In this document: in pieces, positions 2 through 23,185 of the stretch | Position numbering within the stretch: the stretch's first letter is position 1 | Layout of the letters: every line of letters begins with the position of its first letter | Source: Seison nebaliae | Taxonomy: Eukaryota | Direction of reading: 5' to 3' | Length of the DNA stretch: 23,684 bases | NCBI GenBank assembly: GCA_023231475.1 | Contig: JALJEE010001281.1 | Location: forward strand, 62,001 to 85,684 | Position numbers and translations under genes: made by a program | The notes under the pieces: model-generated | What the model saw: the letters and a program-made list of their open reading frames with translations, nothing else | The model's database searches: none | What the model was told of the DNA's origin: nothing

Positions 2-1085
2 TCGATAAAAGACAAAGTGGAAAAAGTGAAAGAAGAGAATGTGCAAACGTCCCGACCAACCATTGACAAGATCTCCATGATTCTTACCAAAAATTTCAAT
101 CAGCCAATTGAGAACGTGAAGAAAATGAAAGAGAAGATTGGTGAGGATTCAGCTAAAGCAACCGTATCCAATACGATGGAAGACACGAGATATAAAATGT
201 ATCTCGCCAAATACAACAACGACAAAGGAGAAGAATATTTGTTCGTCTTTTTTCTTCCTCACACACTTTCATTCAATCCTCTAGAAATAAAGTTGTTAAT
301 AACAAAGAGAAATTGAATAATATCAGTGAAACGACGGAAGAAATTAGAGAAGAATTCGACGAACAGAAAGAACACGTCTCGGCTGTTCTAGGGAAAGTGT
401 CGAATGATGAGCAATCGACAAATGTTTCCTTTTCTTGTTTTTAACGAAAAATTTCAAATATTTCCTTCTCATTAAGATTCGAGAAATGATATTAAATCAT
501 CAACAAGAATCGGCTTCTCTCACTCGCAAAGTCGAAGATTTGAAACGGAAAGTCACCCTACTGAAAAGAGATAAAGGAATCATCGCGAAGAATACCGTTA
601 CTTCTCAATCATCCATGGACAACACAGGAAAAGTAACGGAACAACTAAATAATGTTCATATTTCATTTAAACATTTCTCATTATAATTCTTTCCAATTTA
701 GGATATGGAAGAAACGGAAGAAAATTTGAGTAAAACGTTTGGATTGTTTGGAGAGAAGAGAAGAGACGTTCAACCGATTCGAACGAAAATTAATTTGTTA
801 AGGAAAAATTTCGTTCGAGTTAAAGAGAATTACGAGAGTTGGCTACAGAAAATTACGGGTTAGTTTCCATAAAAAACTTCTATATGAAAAAAATGTTTAA
901 ACAAATTTTAAAAAAATCTTCTAAATTCAATTTGTCAATTTGCAGATTATAAGAAGAATTTCCATGAAAATTCCAAACATATGGAACGGAATAAAGTGAA
1001 TTATCAGAATTTAATTGATCGAGCAAAGAATGCGAATGAGATCATCTCAAGTAAACTACTTCGAACGGAATGTGAAGCTAAATGA
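2..1085 (+). CDS. 3' part of a spliced gene encoding a long coiled-coil protein (5' end outside window); C-terminus loosely resembles a laminin beta/gamma chain tail
   Basis: Exons <2-240, 285-423, 477-653, 702-858, 946-1085 join in frame across four GT-AG introns (241-284, 424-476, 654-701, 859-945). The product is K/E-rich and heptad-like and ends ...YQNLIDRAKNANEIISSKLLRTECEAK*. The laminin idea rests only on a coiled coil with one Cys near the C-terminus and is weak inference. Confidence 0.75.
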
Positions 1086-1427
1086 GAAATGGGAGGAATC
1101 TTTGAATATTTCTGTAAATAAAACGTTTTTCCAACCTGTCCACAATCCAACCAACTTATTTAACTGTGACGATGAATTGAAAGATATTTATGAATCAGTC
1201 GATTAAACGATTCCGAGTGATTGAGTCAATTTCATTTCAATTCACAAATTAACAAATATGAAAACCTAAAATTTCTTCCATTTCAGGAAAAGATTTTATA
1301 TCAACTTCTCTCCCCCTCTCTTTCTCTCTCTCTATCTCCAAAACAATCCAATTCTCTGAGATGAAATCAAATAAACAATTGGTGAGAATTTGAAATGAAC
1401 AAAAAGCATTTATTAGAAATGATAATA

Positions 1428-3667
1428 TTAATCATTCGATTTATATTTTTGAAAACGTCGATATCGATCCGCGTTAATTCCATAAGCCGATAATCGATCA
1501 TCCGTAATTTTTAATCGATTTTTCGAATTTGATTTGAAATTTTTCTCTTTTTTCTTCTTTTCTTTTTTTCTCGAATTATCCTCATTCATCTTTATTCCAT
1601 TTTCTTCTTCCATTCTACTTCTTTTTAATAAAATCTTTTCATCTTCTTCTTTCTCATCATCATCATCATCAACAACAACTTTCTTCTCCATCTCTTCATC
1701 ATTCACTTCCGATGATTCAACTTTCTTCTTATGATGTCGTTTTCTCTTCTTTTTCTTCTTCTTTTCGCTTGTCGTTTCAGATTCTTCTGCTATAATTCTG
1801 AGAAAAAAAATTTTTTAACAAAATTAGAAAAAAGTTTTAAGAAATTGAATACCAAAAAATATTTTGAGGAAAAAGTTTTGAGAAAGAAATTTGAAATAAC
1901 TTTTCGGCAATTTTAGTTTCAATTTCTTCCTCTTTATTTTCATTTTCTGCCTTATTTCCATTCTCTTCTTCTTCTTCTTCTTCAACGAATAGTGATGGAA
2001 GTAATCGTTTCTTCAACTTCAAATTTTTACTTTTTTCTTCATATTGTCGCTTCTCATTCAGTTCGATATGTTTGGAACTAAAAATAATTAAAGTTGAAAT
2101 AATTTAAAGACACGAACGTTGATCTGGTGGATTTCTTCAAAGATACCCAACCATTCAATTCTTTATCGTTGGCCAAAAGAATCTGAAAGAACGAAATTTG
2201 AATTGATATTATTTTTATTATTTATTTTATTATCTAAAAATGAACTTCTTCGATCGTCAAACCATAAGTGCTGGGAAGAACTGGCCGATATTTGAAATTA
2301 CTTTTCTCTTCGGTTTTTTCCTTCACATTCTCAAATTCTTCAATTAATTTAACAGTTCTATCGTCTTCTTTCAATTTTGAGGAATGTTTCTCAAGAAACT
2401 TCTCGTCTTCTTCCACTTTATTTTCTGCTTTCAATTTTTTCTCTAATTTCTTTTCTTCAATTGTCAAATTTTTCTTTTTCTTCTTCTTCTTGGTTTCTTC
2501 TTTTGCAACCGATTCGTATTCATCATAATCGATATCATCAATATCGGAAAAAACTGGTTTTTGTTCGTCATCCACATTCTCACTTTTGTTCTTATTTAAA
2601 TAATAATTGTCATCAAATAATCGTTCCATTAATTGATCGTGTTTGTCTGAATCGAAATCGCCATCCAAATCATCGATTTCTAAAGGAATGGAATTCAGAC
2701 CGGAATTCTGTTGAATATTTTCGATCTTCGTCATCAATTCCTTCCGTTTCAACGTTCGCAATCTTTTCATTTCTTCTTTCATCTTCTTTTGTTCATCATA
2801 AATCTTCTTCTTTTTCTCTTTTCGTTTTTCCGCACGATTCTTATTCTCTTGGCGGAGCGAATCGGCCACGTCTCTCGAATGTTTCTCAATTTCATCACCA
2901 TCTTCTTCTTCATGTCGATAATTATATTGATATTCGAATGTTTCTTGTTTTTCCAATTCAGCTTCGTCATCTGATGCCGTCACTAAATTGACGTTAGTAA
3001 ATCGTTCATTATCATCATCTTCATCATTTCCATCATCCTCATCATCATCATTGTCTTCGTTTTCTAAATATTTTCTATCTTTGATATATTTGTGTAAGAA
3101 GAATTGATCGTCTGTTAAAATTTCCTTTAATTTCTCTTCATCTTCATCAACTTCATTTCCATCTTCATCTTCAGATTCCATTTTCTTCTTTATTAATAAA
3201 TCGTCATCATCTTTTTCTTCTTCTTCTACCAATTGATGAAACTTTTTCAAATCTTTTTTCTTTTTCGAATTATATGATTCTGATGAAACTTCTTTCTCAT
3301 CTTCTTCATTCTTCAATAATTGTTCTCGATGATAATCGTGAATACGTAATGGTTTCTCTTTCTTCTTCTCCAACATCTTCTTCTCTTTTTTCTTTGAAAA
3401 ATAATTATCTTTCTTTTTCAATAACGTTTGATCTCTTCGAATAATCTTCTCATGCAACGACAACAACAAACGATCATCTCCTTCTTCGATTGAACTAGCA
3501 TTGTCGGATGATGAAGCGGAATCGGAATCTCCATATTTTGTTTTCAGACGACTCAATTCTTCTTTCTCTCTCGAATTCTCATAATATTTCGCATATGATT
3601 TATTTATTTGGATTTTCGAATCTTTGTCTGATTCATCTTCACGATCATCAAACAGTTTCTTCATCAT
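1428..3667 (-). CDS. KRI1: KRI1 homolog (KRR1-interacting protein, 40S ribosome biogenesis), about 677 aa
   Basis: Exons 3667-2246, 2182-2118, 2077-1901, 1797-1428; introns 2245-2183, 2117-2078, 1900-1798. Recognisable motifs: INKSYAKYYENSREKEELSRLKTKYG, FEYQYNYRHEE, LDGDFDSDKHDQLMERLFDDNYY, FKYRPVLPSTYGLTIEE|ILLANDKELNGWVSLKK, ITDDRLSAYGI. Confidence 0.95.
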
Positions 3668-5800
3668 ATATTCGAATGAAACTGAATTAATTTCCCATCA
3701 AAACTATCCACATTTTTATTAGACTACTCATTTAAATTCTTTCTCCTTTTAAATTTTTTTAAATTAAAATTTTTCTTATTTCATTTCTTTCAAACAGATA
3801 CCGAAGAAGATTTGAAAGAATTGAAAATAATTTAAAACTGAAAGTTCAAACTGAATTTTTTTGAAAAAACATAGAAAATTCGGTTAAGATTTTGAAGAAA
3901 ACTTAAAAGTGCCAAATGGTGTTTGAAGGAAAATTGGAAGTTCCGATTGAATTTTGGAGAAAAACTAAAAATGGCGATAAAGGAAAACGTGAATTTTGAT
4001 TGGCATAATAATTTGGGGAAGTTTGATAATGTTGCCTTCCGGTCGTATGGGAACGAATCACCGTGTTAATGTCCATTTTAATGACGTAATTCGTAGGAGG
4101 CAGGAATAAGTAGAAGTAATAAAACGGATATTAAGGATTTTCTTAGGAAATGTTATTCGACTAATAATTATCATATTTCTGAATGTTTCATTCGTTCTCA
4201 TGGAATTTTCAACGTTAATGTCAACTGTATAATGGGATTTCAGTAGTCTGTCATTGTCGATCGATCTAATCATGTACTGTTTATTATTCATCGGAATTAA
4301 CCTTAACATTCCAACTTGCACATGAACATGTGGAGTCTAATAATTATTATTCAACCATATTCTTCCAATCCCAATACTCCACTCTTCAGAAACGAAGTAA
4401 GACTCACTTCACTCGATTGATGGAGTTACGACGACTAACAATAGTTGACTTCCATTGACTATTAAAGATTAACATGGACATAAAGCGCAGATTGTCGGGA
4501 GCAATCGGGAAGAATGAGGAACGTTTAAATAATCGGTTCGTTAGAGAGAAGACATTCAACTTCTTCCTTTCCTTCAACTTTTTATACTAGTACATAGTTG
4601 TATTTTTCTTTTATTGTATTGTACATTGTTGTGGTGAAGTTCATATGTAAAAGAATGAGGAGGAGAGGGATGAAGGTCACTTTCATCCAATTTGAAATGA
4701 ATAAGTGAATTCTATTCCGAATTACTACCGAATTCCTTTACAATTTCCTTTCTCCTTCTTCCAATCAACTAACAACTAACAACAATAATAATACGATAAC
4801 AAGGGATGATGAAGGAGAATGACATAAGAAACATTTTTTTTTCCTTTTTGAAATAACAGACGACGACAACAACACGACGAGAACGAAAAAGAATAATGAG
4901 GATAAATTTTTTTTCATCCGAAGGAAACGTTTCTGAATAGTAAATATTTGCGGAGGTAAAACAAAAACGAAGTTTATTCGCGCTAAACTTCTCTTATTTT
5001 TCAATTGGATTGCTACATTCATTTTCATCAAAAAACTCTTCATGTTCTACTAAATTCTCCTATCCATTTACTTCCTCCAATGTTCGCGAGGCGATAAGAG
5101 CGTCATGAGAAGAGAAGCCATTGTTGTCGTATTATTAGAAATTTGAGGGGAGGACGAATATTACATAAATTATTTTCTTCTTCTGTTTTCACCTTCACCT
5201 CTTTCGTGTCGGTCCATTAATTACTTAATTCGATTCTACACGTGCTATCGGAGAAAGTTGGACGGAATCGGTCATTCTTTTCGAGAAATGGAAGGGCGTT
5301 ATCCAGAAGAAGAAACTTTAAGTCATTTCTCTCAATTTATTTGATTGATGAACTAATTATTGTCATATTTCTAAGAGTTCACTTTATTCTTCTAGAATTA
5401 TTGTTCATTCATTTTCATTCCATTTACATTCTATTCAATTAATTAAATCTAATTCTCCACAAGCATCAAATTTCAATCAACTTAATTCAATTGAAGAGAA
5501 AATTTAATTTTAATAAAAATTCTCAATTTATATTTTAAAATGATTAAAAATGGAAATTAGATTTTTTAGTTTTCAGAAACAATTTCTATAATCCTTCAGA
5601 CATCTTCATATTCATTTTAAATTCTCCCAAAAAAATTGCCAAAAAAATTTAATTTTCTGATTAATCGAATTATGGAATGTTGAGAAATCGAATAAATCTT
5701 TAGAAATTGGTGAGAACAAACGAAAATGAATGAGAGAATTCTTCTCTCAAAAGAAATTCCACAATAAACTAATAATTTCTCTAGTTTTGTTTAAAAGAGA

Positions 5801-7075
5801 ATGAATCATTCTACTCATATGTCGAAGAATGATGATATTGAGAAGATCATCGAGAAATACAATGACTATTCTCTTTGGCTAAGGAAATATCGTCATTTAT
5901 TCTTAAAATCAGCTACTCCAATTCCAACAATTAAGAATCTCCATCAGAATCCCAGTCAACTTCATCGTTTCAATTCTTTTAATAATCAGAATAAACGAAG
6001 ATCATCTTCTATTGTACATTGTAACAATCAACATGAACAACAACAACAACAGAATTCTTATCAAACTGATTTTTCTTCATCAGATCATTCTCGTCATTTA
6101 TCGACATTGCCAAATGCCTCTGTCACATCATCGATTACCACATCGGGAAATAATTATAGAAATTCATTTTTTCCATATAAACCACCAATCTCACATAATT
6201 CCCGAACGGGATTGATGACGAATAAAAACCGTTCAAAATCCGTTCATCATAATCGTCAAATCTATATTAACGATACATTCAATCCACATCCACAATCCAC
6301 TCAATTTAAACGAAAGAACAGTAAAGATCGTTCGTCTACACACAAATTCCAATTTAATGGTGTCGAATCGTCCAACAAATTATTGGAAGTTATCGAAAAA
6401 CGTAAATTAGAAATGAAAGATAATAATCGACGTCGATACAAGACGAAACGTGATCAACGTTCAACTCATACAGTTATGGAACAAATTAGGAATCAATATA
6501 TTTATGACACAAATAAAATTAACGATACGAATCGATATCGGAAGAACGTGAGTATGTGGAATAGTTTTCAATTCCAACGAGATAATCTTGGAACAGCCGA
6601 TAGCACCGTTGGAAAATTATCATCGCCCAGATCTTCTATTTCTTCCGCCGCCTCCAACACTAATAAAATACAGTCATCATTCTCAAAATCGAATCCTAAT
6701 ATCGGTGTGGAAAACCGTTCAAATCTCCCCAACATATCGAGAGATGTTGGCGGGAAAACGGCAAAGAAACGTGTCAACTTTCTCACTGGCAATAAAGCGG
6801 AAAACCAAAAATTATCTTTAAATTATTGTCAGTCTGCACATCCAACCAGTAAACGCCAAATAAAATCTATTTTGAAAACATGTGGCTCGGTCGACTCATC
6901 GTCATCATTTCCCGTCACTTACAATTTACCTTCGTCCAAAATTCCGCAAGTTGATGAAACATCGAACGGTGATTATTTGGATGAAGCTTATCCAATTATC
7001 AAATTTAGTGCGAACATTAATGAAACCATAGCTCCGACTTATACTGATTCGATGATCGAAATATGGAAAACTTAA
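5801..7075 (+). CDS. Intronless 424-aa Ser/Asn/Arg-rich, probably disordered protein of unknown function
   Basis: A 1275-nt uninterrupted ATG-to-TAA ORF in very AT-rich DNA is unlikely by chance. No domain recognised. Confidence 0.65.
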   Translation: MNHSTHMSKNDDIEKIIEKYNDYSLWLRKYRHLFLKSATPIPTIKNLHQNPSQLHRFNSFNNQNKRRSSSIVHCNNQHEQQQQQNSYQTDFSSSDHSRHLSTLPNASVTSSITTSGNNYRNSFFPYKPPISHNSRTGLMTNKNRSKSVHHNRQIYINDTFNPHPQSTQFKRKNSKDRSSTHKFQFNGVESSNKLLEVIEKRKLEMKDNNRRRYKTKRDQRSTHTVMEQIRNQYIYDTNKINDTNRYRKNVSMWNSFQFQRDNLGTADSTVGKLSSPRSSISSAASNTNKIQSSFSKSNPNIGVENRSNLPNISRDVGGKTAKKRVNFLTGNKAENQKLSLNYCQSAHPTSKRQIKSILKTCGSVDSSSSFPVTYNLPSSKIPQVDETSNGDYLDEAYPIIKFSANINETIAPTYTDSMIEIWKT

Positions 7076-7650
7076 TTTAACGTATTCTATCCTCCACTCG
7101 CTCTCCCATTTTCAATCTTCATTTTGTAAAGGATTTTTATTGAATAGTTGGCAATCTACATTATATATTTCTCCAACAATTTCTTTACACATCGATTTCC
7201 TCATCGTTCATTTCTATCGATATTAATCACTTTATCAATCTCCCAACAAAACTATTCGTAAATTTTAATAAAATTTGTAGATAATTATTTTACCGTTCAA
7301 ACCGTATTGAATATTTCTGAATGATACTGATATTAATGTGAAGTAGTTAAATTTGAGATAATATAAGTTTTCTAAATTTCCGATTATCATCATTATTGAT
7401 AGATATTATTGAATGGGAGATCGATTATTCGAAACTTTTAGAAGAAAATTGATGGTCAATTGACCAGTGAGAAGGGAAATGAAATGAAGAAATGAAAATT
7501 GAAAAAAAAGTATTTTGAGAAATTTGAAGGAAAATTGAGCGCAAAAAGTTCAAACTGAACAATAGGAAATGAGAAATTTGGAAAAAATTTGAGAAGATAA
7601 TGAATGAAATTGTGACACGTCAACTTAATATTGATGAGTCGTTTGTTTGA

Positions 7651-7686
7651 TATAAAAGCGAAGAATTTCTAATTAGAATTTCATTT
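7651..7686 (+). promoter_or_regulatory. Candidate beta-tubulin core promoter (TATA box plus initiator-like element)
   Basis: TATAAAAG at 7651-7658 and TCATTT at 7681-7686, about 30 nt apart and about 245 nt upstream of the ATG. Confidence 0.45.
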
Positions 7687-7844
7687 AGTTTTTCCTTCAT
7701 CTAGAATTAGTAGTTCACATTTAGTAGTAGCAATTTCAATTCATCTTTAGCAAGTAGAAAATACCAGTAGACAAATTCTTTTCTTTTTAACAATTCGTAG
7801 TAATATTTTATTCATCCTACTAGTAGTTTACGTAAAGTAATCCA

Positions 7845-7922
7845 GTTGAGTTTAGTATTTTCTTTCCATTTCAACTAATTCTCATTGAACTTCAATTCAA
7901 TTCTCCATCCAACCTTCATTAG
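7845..7922 (+). other. Probable 5'-UTR intron of beta-tubulin
   Basis: GTTGAG at 7845 (alternative GTTTAG at 7850), then a pyrimidine-rich tract, then TAG ending at 7922, 4 nt before ATG 7927. Confidence 0.5.
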
Positions 7923-7926
7923 GAAA

Positions 7927-9315
7927 ATGCGTGAAATCTTACATATGCAAGTGGGACAGGCTGGTAACCAGATTGGAGCGAAATTCTGGGAAGTTATTTC
8001 AGATGAACATGGTATTGATCCGACTGGTACATACCATGGCGACAGTGATTTGCAATTGGAACGTATCAACGTCTATTTCAATGAAGCCGCTGGCGGCAAA
8101 TATGTCCCGAGGGCTGTTTTGGTCGATTTAGAACCGGGTACTATGGATGCAGTACGAGCTGGCCCTTTCGGACAGATATTCCGTCCCGATAATTTTGTAT
8201 TTGGACAAGCAGGAGCTGGCAACAATTGGGCGAAAGGTCATTACACGGAAGGTGCTGAAATTGTCGATTCAGTTTTGGATGTTGCACGAAAAGAAGCAGA
8301 AGGATGTGATTGTTTGCAAGGCTTTCAATTGACACATTCATTGGGTGGAGGATCAGGATCTGGTTTGGGAACTTTACTTATCTCGAAAATTCGAGAAGAA
8401 TATCCTGATCGAATGATGTGCACTTATTCGATTGTACCATCACCAAAGGTATCAGATGTAGTCGTCGAACCGTATAACGCTACATTATCCGTCCATCAAT
8501 TGGTAGAGAATTCTGACGAAACGTTCTGCATCGACAATGAAGCATTGTACGATATCTGTTTCCGAACATTAAAACTCGTCACACCAACATATGGTGATTT
8601 GAATCATTTAATTTCCGCTGCCATTTCCGGTGTCACTACATGTCTCCGATTCCCTGGTCAATTGAATTCGGACTTGAGGAAACTGGCTGTCAACATGGTT
8701 CCATTCCCTCGTTTGCATTTCTTTATTCCCGGATTTGCTCCATTAACGAGCCGTGGTAGCCAACAATATCGTGCGCTAACCGTACCAGAATTAGTACAAC
8801 AAATGTTCGATGCCAAAAATATGATGGCTGCCTGCGATCCACGTCATGGACGTTATCTCACTGTTGCTTGCATTTTCCGAGGTCGTATGAGTATGAAAGA
8901 AGTGGACGAACAAATGTTGAACATTCAAAATCGTAACAGTTCATACTTTGTCGAATGGATCCCTAACAATGTCAAGAGTGCCGTTTGTGATATTCCACCG
9001 CGCGGCTTGAAAATGTCTTCTACCTTTGTAGGTTAACAGGAAATCATTTCGAATTTAATCTTCATTCTCTCTTCAGGTAATACCACCAGCATCCAAGAAT
9101 TATTCAAGCGAGTAGGCGAACAATTTACCGCTATGTTCCGCCGTAAGGCTTTCCTCCACTGGTACACCGGTGAGGGTATGGACGAAATGGAGTTCACTGA
9201 GGCCGAATCGAACATGAATGATCTCGTATCCGAATACCAACAATATCAAGAGGCAGGCTTAGATGAAGAAGCAGAGAACGAGGAGGAAGAAGAAGGTGTC
9301 GAACAAGATGGTTAG
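7927..9315 (+). CDS. TUBB: Beta-tubulin, divergent isotype, 447 aa
   Basis: MREI start at 7927; exons 7927-9031 and 9077-9315. Removing the 45-nt intron 9032-9076 (GTTAAC...TTCAG) restores [14 protein letters not shown]. Motifs [14 protein letters not shown] and [20 protein letters not shown], with an acidic tail. Confidence 0.99.
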
Positions 9316-9667
9316 ATTATATATACCGGTAGAACGGTAGGAAAAATTTTAATAAACAATTAAAATTTAAAAAAAAGAAAAATTCTAAAACTATTTCAAA
9401 ATGATCTCATTTTATCGATTGTCCCATTACAGTCGTTATTAAACTTTAAAAAGAAAATTTTAAAATTTTCGAATAAAATTTCGCTTTAACTTAAAAACTC
9501 AAAATTTTATCTTCCATACAAAATTAGTTTACATTCTCTTCATAACTGTTTGCATTGCTAAGTAGAAGTAATGAGAAAATAATCATCTGGTGAACTGGAG
9601 AAGAAATATTTTGTTCTGAATACTCGAAAGAATTTATTTATTCTCATTTTGTTTTTATTGGGAAATA

Positions 9668-10825
9668 ATGATTTCTTTAATATTTCATTTCTTATTTTTA
9701 TATCTAATCAATAGCATTAGCTCCGAATCTCGCTTCGTCAACTTTAAGGGTTTTATATGTGACACGGCTGGAATGACTTTAGAATTTGAATATGATGACC
9801 ATTTCTATCTGGAAGTATTGGATGTGGATGACAAAAATTGTTTTAAACAACGTAATGGTACTGACAAAACGATTTTTGTAGACATTCCACAAAAATGTCT
9901 CAAAAAAGATTCTGACAGGTGATCCATTTTCGGTCGTTATTTACTTATTCTTTCTCTTCTTCACTAGTCAGACCTGCTGGATATGCTTCCATTCTCGTTT
10001 CAGTAGCCGATGTTCTCGTTTATGAAAATGTGTTGTCATACTTTGATCTCGTTTGTGAACTAGCTGAAACGGTGGATAAGCCCAACTCGTTCAAAGTCAA
10101 GTTTGCACAATTTTGATAGAAACTAAGAACTGTTGATGATTATTTGAAGAATGTTTAAAGAGAATCCTCATTTCGTCCGTTTAGTAACCGTGGCGGAAAA
10201 TGTTGAAGACTCACTTTCCATGATCTTTACTCCTATTTCATCAGATAAAAACAGCGCGTCCTCTTGTCTCATAGAGAACGAGTCTTATATTTTTTCCTTA
10301 ACTTTAAATTCGAACCGTTAAATTTCTTTTCATTCTTTCACTCCTCTAACAACTATAAAGAATATAATCATTTCAAAATCGAATCGATGAGATATTTTAT
10401 GAATAAGCCACCGAATGCAGAAGCAATTATCTTCGAGAACAGGTTTCTTTTTTAAATTCTCCTCTTAAATTAAAAGTGTCTTTAATTCATCCAGTTGTCC
10501 AAAATGGTCCTACCAATTCGGCGATTGGACAATCGACCAAAAATTTGAATATAAAACTACTTTCTCTCCCATCGACTTGCCCAATCTCCATATTGAGATT
10601 GTCGTCAACGTTTGTAAATTGGCAACTGATCCTTATTGTCATATTCCGGTTGAATTCTTTTATTTCTATTCATTTGTTTCACGAAATTATTTTTTTTAGA
10701 ATAATTGTAAATCAATTCGACGAGATAATGATAACTCGTTGACGGTTGAGATAACAGACAACGCTACAGAAGATCATAAACAACTGAAATTGACTAAACC
10801 TCAGATAATATGCGATTCAAAATAA
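9668..10825 (+). CDS. Secreted zona pellucida (ZP) domain / cuticlin-like protein, about 302 aa
   Basis: Exons 9668-9918, 9972-10100, 10150-10316, 10361-10442, 10495-10648, 10700-10825 join in frame (intron 2 donor could be 10089 or 10101). Hydrophobic signal peptide; ZP-N-like CDTAGMTLEF...C...C...FDLVC; ZP-C-like IIFENSCP and LHIEIVVNVC...C..P..C followed by KSIRR. The ZP call comes from the Cys pattern by eye. Confidence 0.7.
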
Positions 10826-11120
10826 AATTTATTTCGGAATAAATTATACTGATGAGTTCAATTAAATACTTCTTACCTCATCTATGTGATAATCAAAGGC
10901 TTCTGTTGACGATGAAGAAGAATATGAAGAGAATTTAGTAGAGTAGAATAGAGGAGGAAATACGGAAATCTCCCCATGTTCGATAATTGTTAGAGTAAAA
11001 AACAAGGATTATAAAATTTCCTCTTTTTCATGAAAAGGTTAATAATAATAATAAATGACTGAACGATAAAAAATGGTGTAAATTAATTGAATTGATTTAC
11101 TTTTGATCACGATTATCGAC

Positions 11121-12143
11121 TTACGCTTTCTTAGAATGTTTCAACAGCCATTGTAATGTGATATCTTCAAATGAAATTAAAATAATCATGATGTTAAAAA
11201 TAAAATAAAAGTTCAATCAACCTAAATTTTTGTTCTCACGACAGGAAATCGAATAACAACAAAGTTCCCGAGTAGCGTTTTGTCCGTTCAATTGCCTAGA
11301 ATAAAATTCATAAAATTTAATAGAAAAAAAATAATAAAATTTTCAGCTGAAATAATTTTAAAAATTTGATATAAAAAAAATTAATAAAATTTCATGAAAA
11401 GAAATTTACAAAATTTGATGAGAAAAAATTAATAAAATTTCATGAAAAGAAATTTACGAAATTTGATGAGAACAAATTAATAAAATTTCATGAAAAGAAA
11501 TTTACAAAATTTGATAGGAAAAATAAAAATGGTTTAAATTTGACAGAAAATAAAAGACTAACAATGCATTAATTAGATCATCAGAATTCATTGCATTTGG
11601 TAAATCGTTCTTGTTCCCTAGAATCAATACGGGAATGCCATCGAGTTGTGGCTTGTCTAACAAATTATGAAGTTCTGTTCGTGTCGGTTCAATTTTATCA
11701 GAATCAGCTGCATCGACCATATATCTATGAGAGGAAGTGGATGAATAAAAAGAGAATAGATGAAAAACATTATTGCATTTACTCCACGACAATATCGTTC
11801 CCACATGCTACGGAATCGAGCCTGTCCCCCGATATCCCACAACTGAGAGAGTAAAGTGTTTAAAAATTTTAATAAATAGAAATTGATCAAACTTTAATAG
11901 ACATATTTCCTTTCGTTATCTTCTTCATGTTGAATCCAACGGTGGGAATCATATTCTCGTTGAATTGTCCATTCTGGAGAATGAGAGAATTGAAAGAGAA
12001 ACGACAAATGTGAAATGAACGGCGATGACATTGACGAATGTGGTTTTGCCCGAATTCTGCAGACCGACCAACGTCAATTCCATCTCCTCCTTCCAGAAGA
12101 GACTCTTCAACCAATCCAGAAACTTCGATAGGAATGTTATCAT
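11121..12143 (-). CDS. ARL8: ADP-ribosylation factor-like GTPase 8 (lysosomal Arl8), 185 aa
   Basis: Exons 12143-12021, 11973-11893, 11842-11769, 11724-11563, 11295-11222, 11164-11121. Motifs [73 protein letters not shown]. Confidence 0.98.
11361..11516. repeat. 48-bp minisatellite, about 3.2 copies, inside ARL8 intron 4
   Basis: Unit AAAATTTGATGAGAAAAAATTAATAAAATTTCATGAAAAGAAATTTAC repeated in tandem with few mismatches. Confidence 0.9.
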
Positions 12144-12982
12144 TGTAAAGATAAATATAATAGATAAATCTAAAGAGGAAATTGAGAGGGAAATTATGAA
12201 GATACATGGGCTATCATGTGATGAGAGAAGAATGACAAATTCGAAATTTTTCTTTTGTCCCTATAACCAGTTATCGACTTTGTCTCCAATATATTAAACG
12301 AAATTTATTTTGTTGAAAACATAAAAATTATGAGTAAGATGATCATTTGGAAAAGATCTGATATGTTTCACACTTAATCCATTCAAAAAATTAAGCCGAA
12401 TATCACACGAAATTAAAGGAAGGAGTAATTGTTTTCTCTCTTATTTTTTTCTCATTTTTTCTCATTTTACCCTCATTTTTTTTGACAACGAACTTTGCTT
12501 CTAATACAATTGCTAATTTAAGTTTTTCTTTCTCACTATATATAATGAACGCTCATTTTTAATACTTTTTTCTCATGTCTTGTTCTAATTATTTCTCTAA
12601 TTTCTCATGTTCTAATTTCTAATGAGTCATATAATGAATTGAATGTAGCATAAAAATTACGTTTCATATTAATGTTATGGTTGATGGTTTAAAGGCAACG
12701 ACATTATTATTTGGCAATGCTTATTCGATATTGGTAAAAATAACTGGGTATTATTTGAATTGTAAATGGAATTTTCGAGTTTTGTAACTTATCAATTGAG
12801 AGGAACGATGAAATTGATAGATGTGAGTTAGATAAAACGAATAAAACTTTTAATGTTTTATAACGAGAAAACGAAAGAAATTCTTTTAAATATTTCGAAA
12901 ATAAAATAATAAACAAAAGTATGAATTAAAGTATCAGTAATTGTTGTAGAAAGGACGAAGATTTATAAGGGAAAGATAAAAG

Positions 12983-15115
12983 TTATAAGTGATGGCTAGG
13001 AAACCACTTCTGTTTATCAGATGATATGTCGCAACTCTTCACTCGAACTGTTCCGATCGAATCGCCTTCGAAACATTTTGCAATCGACATTTGTTTGATT
13101 GTATTCGTAATGTTACTGTATTGTACGAATTGGTTTCCTTTCATTCCATGACAAGAAAATAATTTAATTGGAGATCCTTCCTTTTCAATAATCACAACTT
13201 AATTCATTTTCGAGTGTAAATATTTAATAACTTCGCTGAATGGAGTATCGGCACATACATCGTGATGTTTTCTTTTCATGTCTTGCTTCCAAGTGAATTC
13301 CCATCTTTCTCCTTTTAGGCAATCATCCAGAACTAAAATGGAATTTCTTTAAAAAAAATGTGAGAACTCCAAAAACAATTTCACCAACTTTCCAGTAATA
13401 CAAAGTGATTTATTCACTTTCCATTGTACGAATCCGGAAGCATATGGCAATTTTGGGATTTTCGGATAATACGATTCCAAATCGTAGAGAACATTCTTCA
13501 TATACCAATCGAACGATTTACATTCTAATTGCGTCCTAATTATTTTCATCTTCTCAATATTTTTTCCAACATCTTCATGTCTATTTAATAATTAATAATG
13601 ATAATAATAATAATCCATTATATAATAATTAATAGAATTAAAATTATAACTTGAGATATGGTAGTCGTTTATAAACATATTCCTTATACTCATCCATCCA
13701 CACTTCCACTACTCTTTTCAAATTGCGACCAAGACTAAATTGTCCACCAGAAGTATGTCCACCATAAATCCGATAAATGTGACCGATTCTCGAACAAGGA
13801 ACATCAACCATTCGACCACCACATTGCCAGATCTGCCGAAAGAATTGGAAAAGGATCGTCTGAAAATGATGAAAACCTTAAAAGAAATTTCATATTGTTC
13901 ACCTCCCCACACTTTCAATTCTTCGTCATAACCACCGAGTTCCCAGAACCACCGTTTAGTGATGGCGAATAAACCACCCGCCATTACCGGTGATTCGAAT
14001 GGAACTGAATGAACATATCCCACTCCGTATTTAGTAGGTAGTCGTTTGTAATCCATATTCCAATCGAACGCACCTCTCGCACCTTGATCTTGTTCACGGA
14101 AAGCAAATGTCTTCCCATCGATAATATCGATGAAGGGACAAGCAACCATCTTATAATTTTTAGCGATTTCATCTGATAATTTTCTTAAGCTTTTCACAAA
14201 TGAAAGAGAATGGGAAACGGAGTAATGGTGGTAGATAGTTATGTTGACATTCGATATGAGAATCGAGAAATAGAAGAACTTCACCTAAAAGAGAAAATTT
14301 GAATGAAGAAGTTCGAAGGAATTGTGAACTTTTGGCAACTCGAGCGCCAGCCATTCTCGCTTTCATCAATCCATTTTGTTCCGATAATAATTCAAATTTA
14401 ACTTCAATCTTATCAGTAGAATTCTGAATGGACATTGCATATTGATGTAATTCATCGAACTTAATTCCTTCATATCGTCACTAGTTAATGGCAGGAAGTC
14501 AAATTGAATGAAAACTTGGTTTACTATTATCATCAACAATGATAATTTCTCTCAAATGTTCCGATGCTCGATTGATCAGAGACGTAACCGATCGATACAA
14601 AACTGATGATAATTCATTACGAACCGTAATAATAACTGAAGTATGAGGTAATGTTCTAAAGTATTTCGTTCTTAAACATCTTTAAACAAAAAAAAAAATT
14701 TTTTAATTAACCATTTTCAAATTAACTTCGGATGTCGTAAATCAGGAAGAGAACGATCATAAACTAAAGCGTCACTCACAATTCCTTCAAATCCATGATA
14801 ATGTTTCAAGCTCTCATGTAACGGATTTGCTAATTGTTCATTGCTTAATAGAAATGGTTTGCCTTGCTCTCCATTCCCATGACGAAGACGATCTTTCTTC
14901 AATGATTCTAATCGATTATAATTCACCAAATCCTCCCATTTCTCTTGTTGATTTAATGAGGGAAGTAGCTTTCTCTCGTTGTCATGGTAATCAGTTAATT
15001 TCAATTGAACAATCTTTTCCGGTCTCAATACGTCAATACTTATTTGTTTTAAAATCACAATAATGATAATGATGATGAGAATCCTCGTTAGTTTCTTATA
15101 AGTAAATCGTCGCAT
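12983..15115 (-). CDS. GALNT10: Polypeptide N-acetylgalactosaminyltransferase, GALNT10-like, about 579 aa
   Basis: Nine exons: 15115-14727, 14679-14516, 14467-14330, 14284-14219, 14172-13877, 13832-13651, 13580-13389, 13346-13232, 13180-12983. Type II TM anchor, GNGEQGKP, RSLPDLRHPKC, EIIIVDDNS, DxH motif FLDSHIEC, GARGAFDWNMDYKRLP, PFESPVMAGGLFAI, WGGEQYEISFKIWQCGG, and a ricin-type lectin domain (CHGMKGNQ). The subfamily is assigned from remembered motifs. Confidence 0.93.
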
Positions 15116-16009
15116 CTTCTATTCTTTCGAGTGTTGTGAGAAATTCAATTAAATTTACCTTTCTTTCACTCCATTCTTTCTCATCTCATCATTCCATTGT
15201 CACATCTGTTCTTCATTCGATATTCACACTATGCACACTTTTTAAACAATGAAAAATAATTATCAAATTTATTATGAATTATCTCTCTCTACTACACTCA
15301 CTGCACAACATCTACAATATTGAATCAATCATCACGAATCTGAAAAAGAAGCAACTGGGAAGAAACTTCCTCCAAACATTTATCGTCTAAAGTACAACCA
15401 AATCTGTTTTAAAACTGTTACGAAACTATTAAATTAAATTTTCAAAGAAATATATTCGATATGTTTCGTTAGGACAAAAATGTTTGAATGACTTGGGAAT
15501 TTCTTCTTACAATCATAAGAATGAGAAAAAAAATCAATAGAATTATGAGAAGAAGTTGTAGAAGGAGAAATTGATTTGTAATTAGAGAAAATAATATCGA
15601 GTTAGATAATGTTAGTTTGTTTGAGTTGTTGATAATTGAAGATAAATAAGTGGACAATAAGCATATCAGATAAACGACAGGAAGTGTAGAATTAAAAAAG
15701 AAATTTGAATTTTTTTGAAGTTTCACGTGAAATTCAATTCAGAGCTTATCGGACAATTGCAATCAATTTTCTATGCTCCTTTCAGAATCTTTACATCACA
15801 CTTACTATTCTCATTATTCAATTCAATTTAAGAGTTTCTATGAAAGAACTTTTAGTTCAGAAATAACTATCATATTTCTTGGATTATCTCCATCTAAAAA
15901 CTATGAAAATTTCTTAATAATCTTTTGAAACTTTTGATGTATCTCAAAATATCTTATAACAAACTTTTAAAATTTTTATTTTTATAGATCGAGTGATAGT
16001 TATCGAAAT
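15116..16009. promoter_or_regulatory. Intergenic region between divergently transcribed GALNT10-like and LRPPRC genes (possible bidirectional promoter)
   Basis: Head-to-head start codons about 0.9 kb apart; no specific element confirmed. Confidence 0.4.
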
Positions 16010-19000
16010 ATGTCTTTATTTCGATTAAGTAATTTAAGGAGTTTGAATCGATTCTCTTTCTTTTCATTTCAACGACAAGATCGTTCATATCATTTGTCAT
16101 CGGTAAGAAGGAATGAATTGATGGAAGAATCGAAAGAGAAAAAAATATTCAAATCATCAGTTTCGTTGACGGATATTTATCAGACAATATCTGATTGGCA
16201 TCAGAAGAAAGGTCGAATTCCGATTCATTGTGTGAAGAATTTGAGAGAGGATTCCCATGACATAACAGAATTAACACATTTTGAATTGATGAATTTATTG
16301 AGATCGACTGGTCATGAAATGAGTACGATTTCGAATGAGGAACGTTTAATTCTCTTAAATGATTTATGGAAGAGAATTGTCGATTCGAAAATTCCGTTAA
16401 CGATCAATTACATAAATTCTTATTTGAATTCAAGAATGAAATTGAACGATACTGAAATGGAATTAAATGGAATTCTGAAAATGATTCAGGAAATGGAAAC
16501 AGAACCGAATAAAGTGACGTATCAATTGTTGTTGGAGAATTGTGGGAAGAGTGCGAATATTGGCGATGCTCAGAAAATTCTGCAATTGATGAAAACTTCA
16601 AATTTTGCAATAAATGAAAAAACTTTCGCTGCATTGTTAGTGGCACATATTCGTTCCAACAATTTATCAGCATCGAAAGATATTCTCAATATTTTGAGAG
16701 ATAGAAATATCGAATTGAGTGATGAAACACGATTGGAAATGGTGATGGCACATTCGAATGTGTTGAAGAATAGTGAAAAGTTCTCGTTGAATTCGAATGA
16801 GATGGATGAACATTCGGACAATTTAGTAAAGTTGTGGAAAGAGTTCGCATCGAATAAATTGGTGGATATTGCTCCAATTCAAAAGAATATTGAATCATTG
16901 AAAGATATAGAAATGACACAATTCCTACCACTCAGATATGGAATCGATTTATTACGTGATGGAAATGTGATGGTGAGTAACGAGAGTGGAGAAACGGTGA
17001 AATCGATAAAAATCGTTTATGACGATCTGATGGAAAAGATGAAGGAGACGATTGGACTACTCAATCTCGGATTGATGAGTCGTCGAGAACGATCGATGAA
17101 TGAAACGAGAAGAATGAATGATAATATTCCTGAACGATTATTAAATCAATTGGGAGGATTGAGAGATGTATATAATGCCGCAGTTTCATTCTCAGCAAAT
17201 GGTCAATATGAAATTGCAACGAAATTATTAGGAATGCATTTAAATGAGAATTTAGATAATCAATTATCATTCATTTATCCATATCGACATTCATGTACTC
17301 ATCAATTCATCCGATTATCATTATTTGGTGAATTGGAAGATTGGAAGTATTTGAATGAACAAGAACAAATCGAACGATTAAATTTGGCAAATGAAAATTT
17401 CGGGGAATTAATCGATCTGATGGTTTTCAATGAAATTGTCTCGAGAAACCGATCGACATATCTCGACAATTTATTAGGAATTGTTTATTCCACCACCGCC
17501 TTCCGTTACCAGAAGAGAAGTGACGAATATAAAACGACGGTGACGAAATTGACGACGAATATTCTTCAGGAATTAATTCAAGACAATTCCGCTTCCAATT
17601 TCCTCTATTTCGCACCGTTACTCAAACGACATATGGGAAATGAGGAATCTCTCGTTAATTTATATCAGAAAGCTGATAAGACGAATGCATATCCGTCATC
17701 TAGTGAATTGAACATGTTACATTTTACAAACCGTCACAAAACCGTCGATGATATGAAACTGAACAATGAAGAATGTAAGAATTGGATGAATAAATCGAAT
17801 GTTCCAAAACGCATTCGAAATGTATTTCCCGTCGCCTTAATCGAGAACAATTTCGATATTCTCAATAGTTGTCAGGAAGATGTGAAAGTGGAAATGTTTC
17901 AGGAATTGAACAAATCTTTCGATCAATTCTCGAAACTTTCAGGTGAATTTTCGACTTTCTCTTATCGTCAATTCTACGAATTTATCACTGATCAATTGGC
18001 AACAACTTTCCGACGTCTCGAACAATTTTCTGAAGAAGAGAAAAAGGAATTTCTTCAAAAATTTCTTCCTTTTTATATTGAACAGACAAAATCAATTCAG
18101 AATAATCTAATCAATTTCTCCAATTCATTATCGAAAGAGAGTGAGAATATTTCGAGATTTGAGAGTGGTCTCTTGAAGACTAATTTACGAGACTGTTTCA
18201 ATCTCCTCACCATCCATCATAGATCATTCGTCAATTTAGTGACGAGACTATCCGAAGAAAATGAACGAGATACATTGAAGAATTTATTAGATGGAATTTT
18301 CAAAGAGAATCCATTAATGATTGCTCTCAATAGTTATGAGGAGAATGTGAAAGGACAATTGATGGAAGAGAATTTGAGGAAATTGTTTGATCAAGAATAT
18401 ATTGATGAGTTAAAGAAATCAACTGATTTCTACGTTTATCAGAATACGAAGGAATTGATTATGACTGAAATGAATGATGATCGACGAAAATTACTTAAAG
18501 AATTACATCGTGCACCAGTTACTACACCAATGAAGGAATTGGAAGATGGTTTAGAAGAGATGAAATTGGCATCATTGCCACGTATCAATTTACAATTACG
18601 TCTCTTCCGTCAATATATGCAATCATCACAATTTGTGAAAGCGATGGAATTATATGACGAATTAAAATCAATGAAAGTTCATCAATCTGATAATATCGAT
18701 GAGAATTATTTGAATATTGTCGAGAAAGCGGTTCCAGTATATTTATTGAAATTAATTACGTTGCCTGATATCGTCCTAAATTCCAATATGGTATCATTCC
18801 CTAAAGAATTGACGAATGAGAATGATCGAAAAGAATTAATGAACAAATTGAGAAATCGTATCACCGATCCTAAAAGTCAATTACTCCAACATTGGCAATT
18901 GAGAGATATTCTTAATTATTACACAACCTCATTCAACCTCACCAGTACGATGGTGGAAGAGCAAGAAGAAGAAATTGGGAGTTTGATGAAAGATTTGAAA

Positions 19001-20983
19001 TCGTTTGAAAAGCGTCATAAAGAGGCCATAGCAAATTCAGAACAACATATGTTTGATGATCGTCAATTATATCAGAAGAATAGAGATCAGTCCACTATCC
19101 AAAATTGTTATGTTTCTCTTGTGAAAAATTTCATCAATTACGTATATGAAATGGAGAAATCGTCATCGAAACCATTGGAATTATCGACGATAGTGAAGAG
19201 AGTGGATGAATTAGTTGATGAATTATTCAAATTAAATTTATTCCAATCGAATAACATGAAATTCTTGTGGAATACGATTCTTCGTTCGTTCATCGATTTG
19301 AATAAAACGAAAGAATTCCAATCGGAAGAATTTAATGAGACTCTCATGAAATTCTTCAAAGATTCCATGGCACAAAACCGACAAATGATAACAGAAAGTC
19401 TATTGAAACATCTAGTAAAATATGAAGATTTGGATCATATTCAAGAAATTTATGATATCGTTCGAGAGCATTATGGTCCAAATAACGCCATCTCTGATTT
19501 AGCATTCGCTTTCCTCTCAAATCACCAAATCGAACAAGCCACACGTCTCCTCAATCTGCCCACTTTCCAGCCTCGATATGATCGTTTCCTCTACCAATGT
19601 CAATTATTAGCTGAGAACGAACAAACGGAAGAATTAATTGTAGCTTATGATTTTTTGGCGAAACGGAACTTCCAATTTAGAGAAGAACATTATCGATATC
19701 GATTATTGTCATCACGAAATGACGAGAAGATGTTGAAGGAAATTGAGATGGAAATGAAAGAGAATAATATTCATTTGTCTCAAATCAGTCAACAATTCCT
19801 AATGAATCGTTCACCATTATTGAAGGAAATGATCAATTCAGATGAGAAGAATATTCCCCAATTGCCTAACAATTATCAGAAGATGATACAATTATTGAAC
19901 GAGAAACAATTTTATGTCGCTATGAGAATTTGGAGTCGTATGTCCTTCCAAGACATGTCAGACGAACTACTCTTAAGTCCAACCAAAGACATCGTTTCCT
20001 ATTTGTTAAGAGGCTTAAAAACGATAAAGGACGAAAATGAACTTCAACGAATTCGACAACGTCTCAACACCATCACAACTCGATTAGTGTCTGCAAATAG
20101 AATGGAAATTATCAGGTTAACTTCTTCATTGCCTCTCCAAATTGTATCTACATTCCTCAAAATAAATATTTTGAATTTTTTAAAGGCATTTATCAGAGAT
20201 CGAACAAAATGACACTTCATTTAACGGTTTCAAGAATGCTTTAATTCGAAATGACTTACGGAAAGAAGATATTGATGAATTTTTAGAGAAAATTTTAAGT
20301 TAAATTTTCTTCTAATTATTTCTCTGAAAATCATATTTCTTTCCATATTCTATTCCCTCTATATTCACTTGTTGTCAGATGGAACTATTGAAGATCCGGA
20401 ACTTTATTTGAGGAACAATTTATTTACAATTTTCAATAGAATACGAAAATCTCCAAATTTTGAGAATTATAGAAATAAAGTTTATCTAATAATAATTTCA
20501 ATTTTTCATCAAAATCCTTTTTAGTTGGAACAATGTGTCGCTTTTAGTGTGGATGGAACTAAAAGAGATTTTCTATTAGATGAATTGCTGACGCAATACC
20601 TTCAAAATAACAATTTGGAAGAAGCGAAAAATTTGATAGAAAATGGAATTGGCTTATCGGAAACGAAGGCACCGATGAAGAGGTTGAACATTCTTCAGGA
20701 TTTGAAGGAAGATGAGAAATTGGAGAAATTTGAACGACTAACATTTCTATTAGAAATGATGGAGAAGAATTTAGAGAATAAGAATAATTCAAAACTGAGA
20801 ATTATTCTTTTACAACGAAATCTATATAATAATATTCGGATGAAGGACGTAGAAAAGGTGAAGGAGAGTCTTCAACAGCTCAACCAATGTTTAGGAGCAC
20901 CCAATCTCACCGACCGAATGAAAGGCGATTGTCGAACATTATTAATTGCGAAAGACTACGATGAATTAGTTATGAAGAAATAA
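16010..20983 (+). CDS. LRPPRC: Leucine-rich pentatricopeptide repeat-containing protein, mitochondrial (LRPPRC/bsf ortholog), about 1592 aa
   Basis: Exons 16010-20115, 20186-20298, 20379-20479, 20525-20983 join in frame. R/S/L-rich presequence; PPR block EPNKVTYQLLLENCGKSANIGDAQKILQLMKTSNFAINEKTFAALLVAHIRS resembles LRPPRC QPNRVTYQRLI...GDIEGASKILGFMK...EAVFSALVTGHAR; a later block, DLAFAFLSNHQIEQATRLLNLP, also matches. Confidence 0.88.
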
Positions 20984-21545: not shown

Positions 21546-21795
21546 TAAATTAATAATTTTTTTTTTTTGTTCAAATTGAAATTAATTAAGAAAGGTGTCT
21601 CGGTTAGACAATATTATTTTTGAAAACTTAAAAATAGGACAACAAAAAGAACTAAAAAGGTTTGAAACTTGAAACTGTTTATTTTAGACAAGAAAGGTGA
21701 TTTATATAGAAGCAAGCAAAACACGAAAAACCATAAAACAGGATCCAAATTTCTGTTTGCTTTAACTGTGTGCAACAAAAGGAAAGCATTAATCA

Positions 21796-22778
21796 TTGAG
21801 CAGTGGAAAATTTTCTATAATGAGTCAAAGTACGAGTACATCCGATTCTATCTGTCTTCCCGATCAAAATAATAATCCTCCAAATGCTATTAAAGAATCT
21901 GATAACAAGAAACCAAGAGGAAGACCAAGAGGAGTGAAGAATAAGAACAACAATACACCAACCTACCGTAAAACAACTTGGTTGGATGAAGAAGATGAAA
22001 ATAATTGCACAGTTGCACGACAGAACTTGTTGCAATACAATTAAAATTAAACCTAATTCTCTCCGAAAATACCAACTTGAGAAAAGAATTGGAGATTCTC
22101 TCAGAACGAATGCTACAGTTATCTGAAAGCGTACAGTGCATTAACAATAAGTTAAGCGACAACATTTTGGAACAAGATCATTTGTTCACAATGGTCAAAT
22201 CCATTTCTGATAATAATGTCCTTTCAAATTCAAATTTGAATAATTCCGTCGTTCAAAATAAGTCGAATAAGAACCAGTCGAAATTCGACGGCAAATCTAA
22301 GAAATCATATGCTGGCATGCTATATGGTGGATCCGACGACTTCTGATTCTACCAAACGACCTCCGACCAATAATCCGATTATGAATGAGAAGATAATTAA
22401 ACCTTCTAAAAAGAAAACTAAATCCAAAAACCAAAATGGTTCTTCATCTTCCTTCTCTGGTGAAGCATTGTCTGTATGTATTAAAGGAAGAGAACGATGA
22501 CCTTTCATTCGTACGAAAGCTGTGATTATCAGGAATGTAGTGGCCCACACGACTGTTGATATGATGGCAAACTTTTTGAATGATATGAAATTGCCATTCA
22601 TAAATTTATGGAGATTACGTCGAAAATGTTGATTGGAATCCTGGATGATTGTGAATCCAGCACCAAATGTTTCATTGTAAAATTCGCAGAAGAGCATTCA
22701 GAATCGTTCTTCAAACCTGGGAATTGGTCGCTGCACACTTTTGTGCGAGAATTTGCAGAGGAACCTTACCTTTACTGA
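21796..22778 (+). mobile_element. Degenerate ORF1 of a non-LTR retrotransposon (frameshifts and stops)
   Basis: Successive frames give an AT-hook-like KKPRGRPRG, a coiled coil (LSENTNLRKELEILSERMLQL), SYAGML, and an RRM-like region KAVIIRNVVAHTTVDMMANFL...CFIVKFAEEHSESFFKPGNWSLHTFVREF ending TGA at 22776-22778, directly upstream of RT sequence. Confidence 0.7.
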
Positions 22779-22799
22779 TTCTTCTAAAATTCTTTAATT

Positions 22800-23185
22800 C
22801 TTTATTTCTTCATGTCGTATATCTAAAAGGAAATTTATTTTTTATTTTTTGGACGCGTCAAAAGCGTTTGATTCGATTTCGATGTCTCACGGAATGAGAG
22901 TCTTACATAATTCCGGAATGGATGAGTTTTCTCTCCGTTTCATAAGCGAAATGTTCACAAATGCTTATGGTGTCATCAAACATAAATCAGAATCTTCGTC
23001 GTTATTCAAGATTAACAAAGGAGTCCGACAAGGTTCAATTCTCGCTACTTGGATTTTTGGAAGAATTATTGATGAAGTTCTTGTCGATGCTAACAATAAC
23101 TTCTCCTTTAAAGTCGGTAATGAGAGTTTCCCATCAGTCTACGCTTATGCGGATGACATTCTCATTTGTTGTAATAATGTAATAA
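22800..23185 (+). mobile_element. Non-LTR (LINE) reverse transcriptase fragment, subdomains about 3-5
   Basis: FLDASKAFDSI, FKINKGVRQGSILATWIF, YAYADDILI; similarity stops just after the YADD box. Confidence 0.92.

Follow-up and report, generated by a model that had tools for sequence, protein, structure and literature searches.

GTT donors in 28 of 29 predicted introns of a genomic window from the rotifer Seison nebaliae, and a possible change in the U1 base that reads them

The DNA analysed here, called the window, is a stretch of 23,684 nucleotides (nt) of the Seison nebaliae genome (GenBank assembly GCA_023231475.1, contig JALJEE010001281.1, positions 62,001 to 85,684 of the forward strand), and the subject of this study is the 5' splice sites (donors) of its genes. 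Seison belongs to the rotifers (Seisonidea), lives on Nebalia crustaceans and has a compact genome, about 46 Mb in size (Mauer et al. 2021, PMC8351084). The window has a G+C content of 32% and carries seven spliced genes on both strands with 29 predicted introns, all GT..AG and 40-267 nt long (median 49). Once the 29 introns were removed, the reading frame was open across every junction (29/29). The genes and introns are listed below in window positions, a slash separating the exon end from the intron start.

2..1085, + strand: 3' part of a laminin beta gene, 4 introns; the spliced product equals the last 283 residues of P0242 (a 1801-residue chain) and has Pfam laminin domains
241..284, + strand: laminin intron, donor ttt/GTTCGT, agrees with P0242
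424..476, + strand: laminin intron, donor aat/GTTTCC, AAG acceptor, agrees with P0242
654..701, + strand: laminin intron, donor aat/GTTCAT, agrees with P0242
859..945, + strand: laminin intron, donor cgg/GTTAGT, agrees with P0242
1428..3667, - strand: KRI1 gene, 3 introns, Pfam Kri1 and Kri1_C, open frame
2183..2245, - strand: KRI1 intron 1, donor gaa/GTTCAT, connects Kri1_C profile positions 42 and 43
2078..2117, - strand: KRI1 intron 2, donor aac/GTTCGT, placed by frame continuity only, with an in-frame GTC 6 nt downstream
1798..1900, - strand: KRI1 intron 3, donor aaa/GTTATT, placed by frame continuity only
7927..9315, + strand: beta-tubulin gene (TUBB), 1 intron, Pfam Tubulin
9032..9076, + strand: tubulin intron, donor tag/GTTAAC, from spliced alignment to the weevil tubulin P0036
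9668..10825, + strand: gene called ZP-like in an earlier note, 5 introns; the spliced product ends with P0241 (SNEBB_007041)
9919..9971, + strand: intron of the ZP-like gene and sole exception to GTT, donor cag/GTGATC, agrees with P0241
10101..10149, + strand: intron of the ZP-like gene, donor caa/GTTTGC with another in-frame GTT 12 nt before it, AAG acceptor, agrees with P0241
10317..10360, + strand: intron of the ZP-like gene, donor acc/GTTAAA, AAG acceptor, agrees with P0241
10443..10494, + strand: intron of the ZP-like gene, donor cag/GTTTCT, agrees with P0241
10649..10699, + strand: intron of the ZP-like gene, donor ccg/GTTGAA, agrees with P0241
11121..12143, - strand: ARL8 gene, 5 introns, exons align to the human ARL8A and ARL8B chains
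11974..12020, - strand: ARL8 intron 1, donor gcc/GTTCAT, connects chain residues 43 and 44
11843..11892, - strand: ARL8 intron 2, donor aaa/GTTTGA, connects residues 70 and 71
11725..11768, - strand: ARL8 intron 3, donor aat/GTTTTT, splits residue 95
11296..11562, - strand: ARL8 intron 4, 267 nt with a short tandem repeat, donor att/GTTAGT, placed within one residue
11165..11221, - strand: ARL8 intron 5, donor tag/GTTGAT, AAG acceptor, placed within one residue
12983..15115, - strand: GALNT10-like gene, 8 introns; the spliced product equals P0130 (SNEBB_007043)
14680..14726, - strand: GALNT intron 1, donor gaa/GTTAAT, AAG acceptor, position common to bdelloids and other animals
14468..14515, - strand: GALNT intron 2, donor caa/GTTTTC, AAG acceptor, shared position; one of five protein alignments picked a GTA 9 nt upstream
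14285..14329, - strand: GALNT intron 3, donor aaa/GTTCAC, no shared position found in the loci compared
14173..14218, - strand: GALNT intron 4, donor tcc/GTTTCC, shared position
13833..13876, - strand: GALNT intron 5, donor aag/GTTTTC, shared position
13581..13650, - strand: GALNT intron 6, donor caa/GTTATA, shared position
13347..13388, - strand: GALNT intron 7, donor aaa/GTTGGT, AAG acceptor
13181..13231, - strand: GALNT intron 8, donor gaa/GTTATT, AAG acceptor
16010..20983, + strand: PPR-repeat gene (probably LRPPRC-like), 3 introns, Pfam PPR, open frame
20116..20185, + strand: PPR gene intron, donor cag/GTTAAC, AAG acceptor, placed by frame continuity only
20299..20378, + strand: PPR gene intron, donor taa/GTTAAA, placed by frame continuity only
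20480..20524, + strand: PPR gene intron, donor aaa/GTTTAT, placed by frame continuity only

GTT opens 28 of the 29 introns and GTG the remaining one (9919), and neither GTA nor GTC occurs. The probability of at least 28 GTT among 29 is 9e-10 given the share of T after GT in the window (0.43), and 4e-8 given the T content of intron interiors (0.50). The earlier note, made from the letters of this DNA, had reported 28/29 GTT and no GTA, with +5 G in 7/29 and -1 G in 8/29 donors; these counts are correct, and all 29 introns exist at the genes it named. Its "gene 1", which does have four introns, could now be identified as laminin beta from P0242 and the Pfam domains. By the U2-type criterion, GT..AG with the frame restored was found in 29/29 introns and a purine at +3 in 1/29, and no donor among the 29 has the +3 A of the U12-type motif RTATCCTT. 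ZMAT5 is listed as missing in Seison and both acanthocephalans (BUSCO table, Herlyn et al. 2025 supplement, PMC12256650). The +3 purine is a consensus feature, and its absence thus marks a variant of U2-type introns and not another intron type.

The junctions were derived from protein alignment and reading frame, not from RNA, and all 29 introns sampled come from a single window. Seventeen introns reproduce the NCBI gene models letter for letter (four of laminin beta P0242, five of the ZP-like P0241 and eight of GALNT P0130). For GALNT, among all placements that yield P0130 there is one GT..AG placement per intron, and each is GTT. A donor-neutral spliced aligner, which scored GT and AG alone and nothing beyond GT at the donor, was also run with five GALNTs from outside Seison (bdelloid, sea slug, schistosome, water flea and annelid); GTT was obtained in 39/40 calls, and the identical donor in 38/40. 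Since both the placement search and the donor-neutral aligner give GTT, the placement of donors is not an artefact of choosing GTT. Five introns (KRI1 introns 2-3 and the three of the PPR gene) have frame continuity alone as their basis. In the ZP-like gene, a GTT donor at 9840 joined to a TAG at 9967 would keep the frame and give 29/29; it was rejected because it deletes 26 codons with two cysteines and conflicts with P0241. Two DNA runs (X1 and X2) span the window as unbroken contigs, with no intron joints among the matches listed, and are uninformative on expression or splicing; two further runs (X6 and X7) gave no contig on it. The GTT pattern very probably holds genome-wide, at 85% of donors or more.

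To compare related donors, metagenome contigs were scanned with bdelloid GALNTs. Of the 80 loci found, 50 were aligned and 30 left out (apparently intron-less by match span, or apparent duplicates). A fixed filter discarded calls that had fewer than 4/10 identical residues on either flank, a gap no more than 5 residues away or a GC donor, which removed 17/139 bdelloid calls (122 kept) and 33/151 calls from other animals (118 kept). Fourteen loci form a clade with Adineta and Rotaria (Shimodaira-Hasegawa-like approximate likelihood ratio test, SH-aLRT, 97 in a quick tree) and were treated as bdelloid; no monogononts or acanthocephalans were identified among the compared loci. The bdelloid introns have the same T content as those of Seison (0.50) and a median length of 52, yet their donors are GTA in 105 cases, GTT in 14 and GTG in 3 (Fisher P=6e-19 against Seison, the loci not being independent), and 11/12 intron positions are GTA by majority. 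Neither composition nor the shortness of the introns therefore explains the GTT pattern. One bdelloid position keeps aag/GTT in 10/11 loci (for example L039:1737-1787), the other 11 being GTA. In 31 further loci closest to animal GALNTs, +3 is A in 76 of the 118 kept calls, G in 24, T in 14 and C in 4. For five of the eight GALNT introns of Seison, other animals have an intron at the same position, and there GTT makes up 7/76 donors; old donors were therefore converted. No counterpart of the other three was found among the loci compared. One animal GALNT locus with introns of 42-47 nt (L088) has GTT in 2/3 calls, with weak flanks.

The rest of the bdelloid donor is A at +3 in 86%, G at +5 in 34% (41/122) and G at -1 in 46% (56/122). 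Compared with bdelloids, Seison has less +4 A (11/29 against 79/122, P=0.011) but more -2 A (22/29 against 58/122, P=0.007) and more AAG acceptors (9/29 against 9/122, P=0.002), all three P values being optimistic because the loci are related. The Seison signal thus resembles that of bdelloids after a switch of the third base, with less +4 A and with more -2 A and AAG acceptors. The acceptors, too, are relaxed (AAG in 9/29). A YTRAY-like branch point was seen in 12/29 introns against 15.1 in shuffled sequence; weak branch points are usual in animals.

Against the local background, -2 A is enriched (22/29, expected 10.7, P=2e-5) and so is +5 G (7/29, expected 1.5 with intron bodies of 5% G, P=5e-4), so the suggestion of the earlier note that +3 T is the only conserved position beyond GT was wrong. 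No enrichment over this background was found for -1 G (8/29, expected 5.9), +4 A or +6 T. At +4, T occurs in 9/29 donors against 14.4 expected from the intron background, and at +3, C occurs in 0/29 although 23% of decoys are GTC. Of 16 in-frame GTs that lie no more than 30 nt from a real donor and are not used, 3 are GTT. When only GTT sites were compared (28 real, 184 decoys), pairing with U1 small nuclear RNA (snRNA) in the normal register separated real sites from decoys (area under the curve, AUC, 0.79, P=4e-7), and a register shifted by +1 did not (AUC 0.53, P=0.29). The donors fit the normal U1 register and not the shifted one.

Base 6 of U1, a pseudouridine, faces intron position +3. 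The explanation that we prefer, while holding it at slightly less than even confidence, is that the GTT pattern arose together with a change of this base to A, so that U at +3 now matches. A changed partner rather than a relaxation of the signal is suggested because a near-fixed A was replaced by a near-fixed T, with C in 0/29, and U1 base 6 as A is the simplest reading of a near-fixed A to U change that excludes C and keeps the normal register. In the starting state, rotifer donors were already weak outside their first three bases, as the bdelloid figures show, so that GTN formed the core of the signal. A variant copy of a U1 gene reading GTT may then have arisen beside the old U1, while a drift toward T-rich introns converted old donors one by one. 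U1 genes usually exist in several copies, which makes this route conceivable. What remains of the signal (-2 A and residual +5 G) would be read in the normal register; most of the specificity probably comes from the introns being short, rich in T and poor in G. METTL16 has probably been lost, which would explain the drop in +4 A but leave +3 T unexplained. The U1 change is also favoured by the exon side of the donors: nearly all bdelloid GTT donors have -1 G (13/14, ten of them at one inherited position), whereas it is present in 7/28 of the Seison GTT donors, and the one purine donor of Seison, the GTG at 9919, has a full CAG exon end and the best canonical U1 match of the set (-8.2 kcal/mol). 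Entamoeba, the described lineage with +3 U, is a precedent, as its U1 changed to match and its U6 did not.

Several points weigh against this U1 reading. The usual exon-side U1 pair, -1 G, is not enriched. Duplex energies, computed without pseudouridine, average -2.2 kcal/mol for Seison donors with canonical U1, -2.9 with A at base 6 and -3.2 with G at base 6, so the duplex stays weak even with the proposed change, compared with a mean of -5.0 for bdelloid donors with canonical U1. About a dozen Seison donors form almost no helix with any U1 variant, and U1 pairing therefore may not be what selects them. Over all GT sites, the model with A at base 6 reaches an AUC of 0.83 against 0.69, but this gain merely restates the +3 T count. 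Most lineages with a switch at +4 (yeasts, Thecamonas, Micromonas) kept a canonical U1 (PMC10581693). The sample amounts to 29 introns in one window, and a predictor trained on this genome may have produced the NCBI models. Finally, the proposed U1 change is deduced from the donors.

An attempt to approach U1 itself gave the following. A U1 motif scan of viral contigs yielded 7 matches, none of them U1 by Rfam; a scan of genome contigs yielded 7 matches, of which five are animal-type U1 genes (L008-L012) on contigs of bacterial metagenome-assembled genomes, likely through host contamination. One of them (L011:281-480) matched one contig in each of the DNA runs X1 and X2, from 9 bases upstream to U1 base 58. 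This U1-like contig differs from L011 at 12/67 letters, U1 base 25 being the listed one, and its 3' loose end contains U1 loop II. In the 30 letters upstream its G+C content is 60%, compared with 32% in the window; in depth (5.4 and 15.2) it comes close to the window contigs in X2 (16.7), not in X1 (8-9). The loop II tail looks arthropod-like. The contig may come from the crustacean host or another animal.

The best-surviving alternative, which we consider rather unlikely, keeps U1 canonical and places the choice of donor at the hand-off to U5/U6. METTL16 would have been lost, leaving U6 A43 unmethylated and the U6/donor helix weaker; +3 U would be favoured by a wobble with U6 G44 and tolerated opposite the U1 pseudouridine, or G44 itself would have changed, while the exon-side A's pair with U5 loop 1. 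It has been reported that U6 G44 faces +3 and that purines pair weakly there (PMC11732430). METTL16 is listed as missing in Seison alone among 25 syndermatans in a BUSCO table (Herlyn et al. 2025 supplement, PMC12256650), and the drop of +4 A and the rise of -2 A match the direction seen in METTL16 mutants (PMC11347140). However, loss of METTL16 is known to be marked by +4 U, which in Seison (9/29) lies below the intron background, and yeasts without METTL16 retain +3 A (GUAUGU). Watson-Crick pairing to G44 would favour the C that is absent here, and the U6 ACAGA is invariant in 240 fungal genomes (PMC10581693) and in Entamoeba. The missing METTL16 is itself weak evidence: 356/954 BUSCOs are missing in Seison, so a single absence is a lead only. 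As to the candidates named in the earlier note, METTL16 thus gains a lead and SNRNP27K, which is complete in the same table, loses it.

In another alternative, which we regard as unlikely, U1 and U6 would both be canonical, or U1 would be missing or of marginal use, and +3 U would be read by a changed protein (U1-C, LUC7, one of PRP39/NAM8-TIA1 type, or PRP8). Seison donors are indeed very poor partners for every U1 end tried, and the raised AAG acceptors hint at a wider change of the splicing core. In addition, U1-C is highly diverged in Entamoeba, Cyanidioschyzon splices without U1, and SNRNP40 is BUSCO-missing in Seison and one bdelloid (PMC12256650). On the other side, U1-C and LUC7 have no entries in the BUSCO table; PRPF6, PRPF31, PRPF3, RBM22, SLU7 and ZMAT2, as well as NCBP1, are complete in Seison, and positions -3, -2 and +5 still follow the U1-register consensus.

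It is improbable that the pattern is a local, compositional or annotation artefact with mixed donors elsewhere in the genome. Such an artefact would suit a sample of one window, five of whose introns rest on frame continuity, in which GTT is the commonest GT trinucleotide; but seven unrelated genes on both strands agree, proteins from outside Seison select identical donors, unused in-frame GTs are mostly not GTT, and bdelloids of equal T content are GTA. Pairing of a canonical U1 one base out of step, with +3 U meeting U1 A7, is very improbable: it predicts +3 U and a +5 purine (19/29, P=9e-4), but also +6 G (0/29), +7 U (13/29, background level) and a -2 pyrimidine (6/29, depleted), and this register, as stated above, does not tell real from decoy GTT sites. 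That the introns are recent insertions of Introners (mobile elements) with a GTT end is scarcely credible, since 5/8 GALNT positions are common to other animals even if 3/8 have no counterpart in the compared loci, 8-12-mers shared among the introns are within the shuffle range, and no terminal inverted repeats or target duplications were seen.

Other features of the window are as follows. The ZP-like label has no Pfam backing, as no Pfam match was found for the gene 9668..10825; an in-frame ATG 35 codons upstream of the P0241 start (9668-9774) would add a hydrophobic, signal-peptide-like N-terminus. A short tandem repeat of about 39 nt, seen by eye at 11375-11520, accounts for the length of ARL8 intron 4. 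The ARL8 exon sizes in the window are 123, 81, 74 and 162; we take those of human ARL8B to be 123, 81, 74 and 94+68, which would suggest ancient positions with one intron lost. At 7962-8931 the runs X1 and X2 contain a second tubulin contig, about 82% identical and at about 1.55x the depth of the window's own contig, either a paralog or a diverged lineage. A single-exon open reading frame of 417 residues lies at 5822-7075 (+ strand), of low complexity and with no Pfam match, and a broken non-LTR (long terminal repeat) retroelement at 21793-23452 (+ strand), with an RVT_1 reverse transcriptase fragment at 22798-23259 and upstream frame pieces without a Pfam match. Pfam scans of 12 further open reading frames in the window revealed no overlooked gene, and an Rfam search of the window gave no match.

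Near-fixed GTT donors have a precedent outside animals. In Entamoeba (Roy and Bowser, bioRxiv 10.1101/2022.06.08.495308), donors are GUUUGU(U), with 97-98.5% GUUUGN; U1 has co-evolved to ACAAAC, and the U6 ACAGA has not changed. As in Seison, U replaces the purine at +3 in nearly all introns. Entamoeba, however, is an intron-poor amoeba whose strict seven-base motif changed at +4 too. Seison, an animal, has about four introns per gene in the window; its motif is weak apart from +3 and lacks +4 U, with G at +5 in only 7/29, and its U1 change is so far proposed from donors. Where METTL16 and SNRNP27K were lost, +4 A has been found switched to U (Parker et al. 2023, PMC10581693; Shen et al. 2024, PMC11347140; review PMC11732430), and the switch has been linked to that loss. 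Seison resembles these lineages in the listed absence of METTL16, the lost +4 A preference and the stronger -2 A; those switches changed +4 and kept +3 A, with intron loss and canonical U1/U6, whereas Seison changed +3, has no +4 U and kept SNRNP27K. A third comparison concerns human donors. Roca and Krainer are said to have described in 2009 a +1 shifted U1 register at atypical human donors, reportedly rare; these share +3 U with Seison but need +6 G and +7 U, which Seison lacks.

The earlier note knew of no description of near-fixed GTT donors. This does not hold outside animals, given Entamoeba and its matching U1; for animals our literature search found nothing on GTT-dominated donors, although most subscription papers and bioRxiv supplements lay outside it and could contain a donor logo. 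In the passages found that join the Seison nebaliae genome with introns and splicing, donors are not treated; two supplements of Mauer et al. (2021, PMC8351084) contain no splicing terms, and the main text of a survey of more than 3000 genomes (PMC10639083) does not mention Seison. A transformed +3 U donor is thus known from Entamoeba, and an intron-rich animal with only +3 switched is new. An altered donor signal in the lineage, as the note had proposed, is supported by the bdelloid controls and the converted ancient positions; the components that it named stay candidates.

The fullest version of the claim, that an intron-rich animal recoded +3 from A to U at essentially all inherited donors, with a rewritten U1 and loss of METTL16, is possible but doubtful. 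If it were true, Seison would be the first case of a swapped donor code among animals, and the recoding would prove that a genome rich in introns can pass through such a swap. The transformed donor signals described so far are tied to genomes that lost most introns, a loss taken to permit co-evolution of signal and snRNA. In the window Seison retains about four introns per gene, many of them at ancient sites, and even so the position that bdelloids hold at 86% A appears to have been flipped. Which molecule sets the +3 preference (U1 base 6, U6 G44 or a protein) can be tested directly in Seison, and so can the question whether an intron-rich animal is able to lose METTL16. The pattern also has a practical bearing on gene prediction in the Seison lineage.

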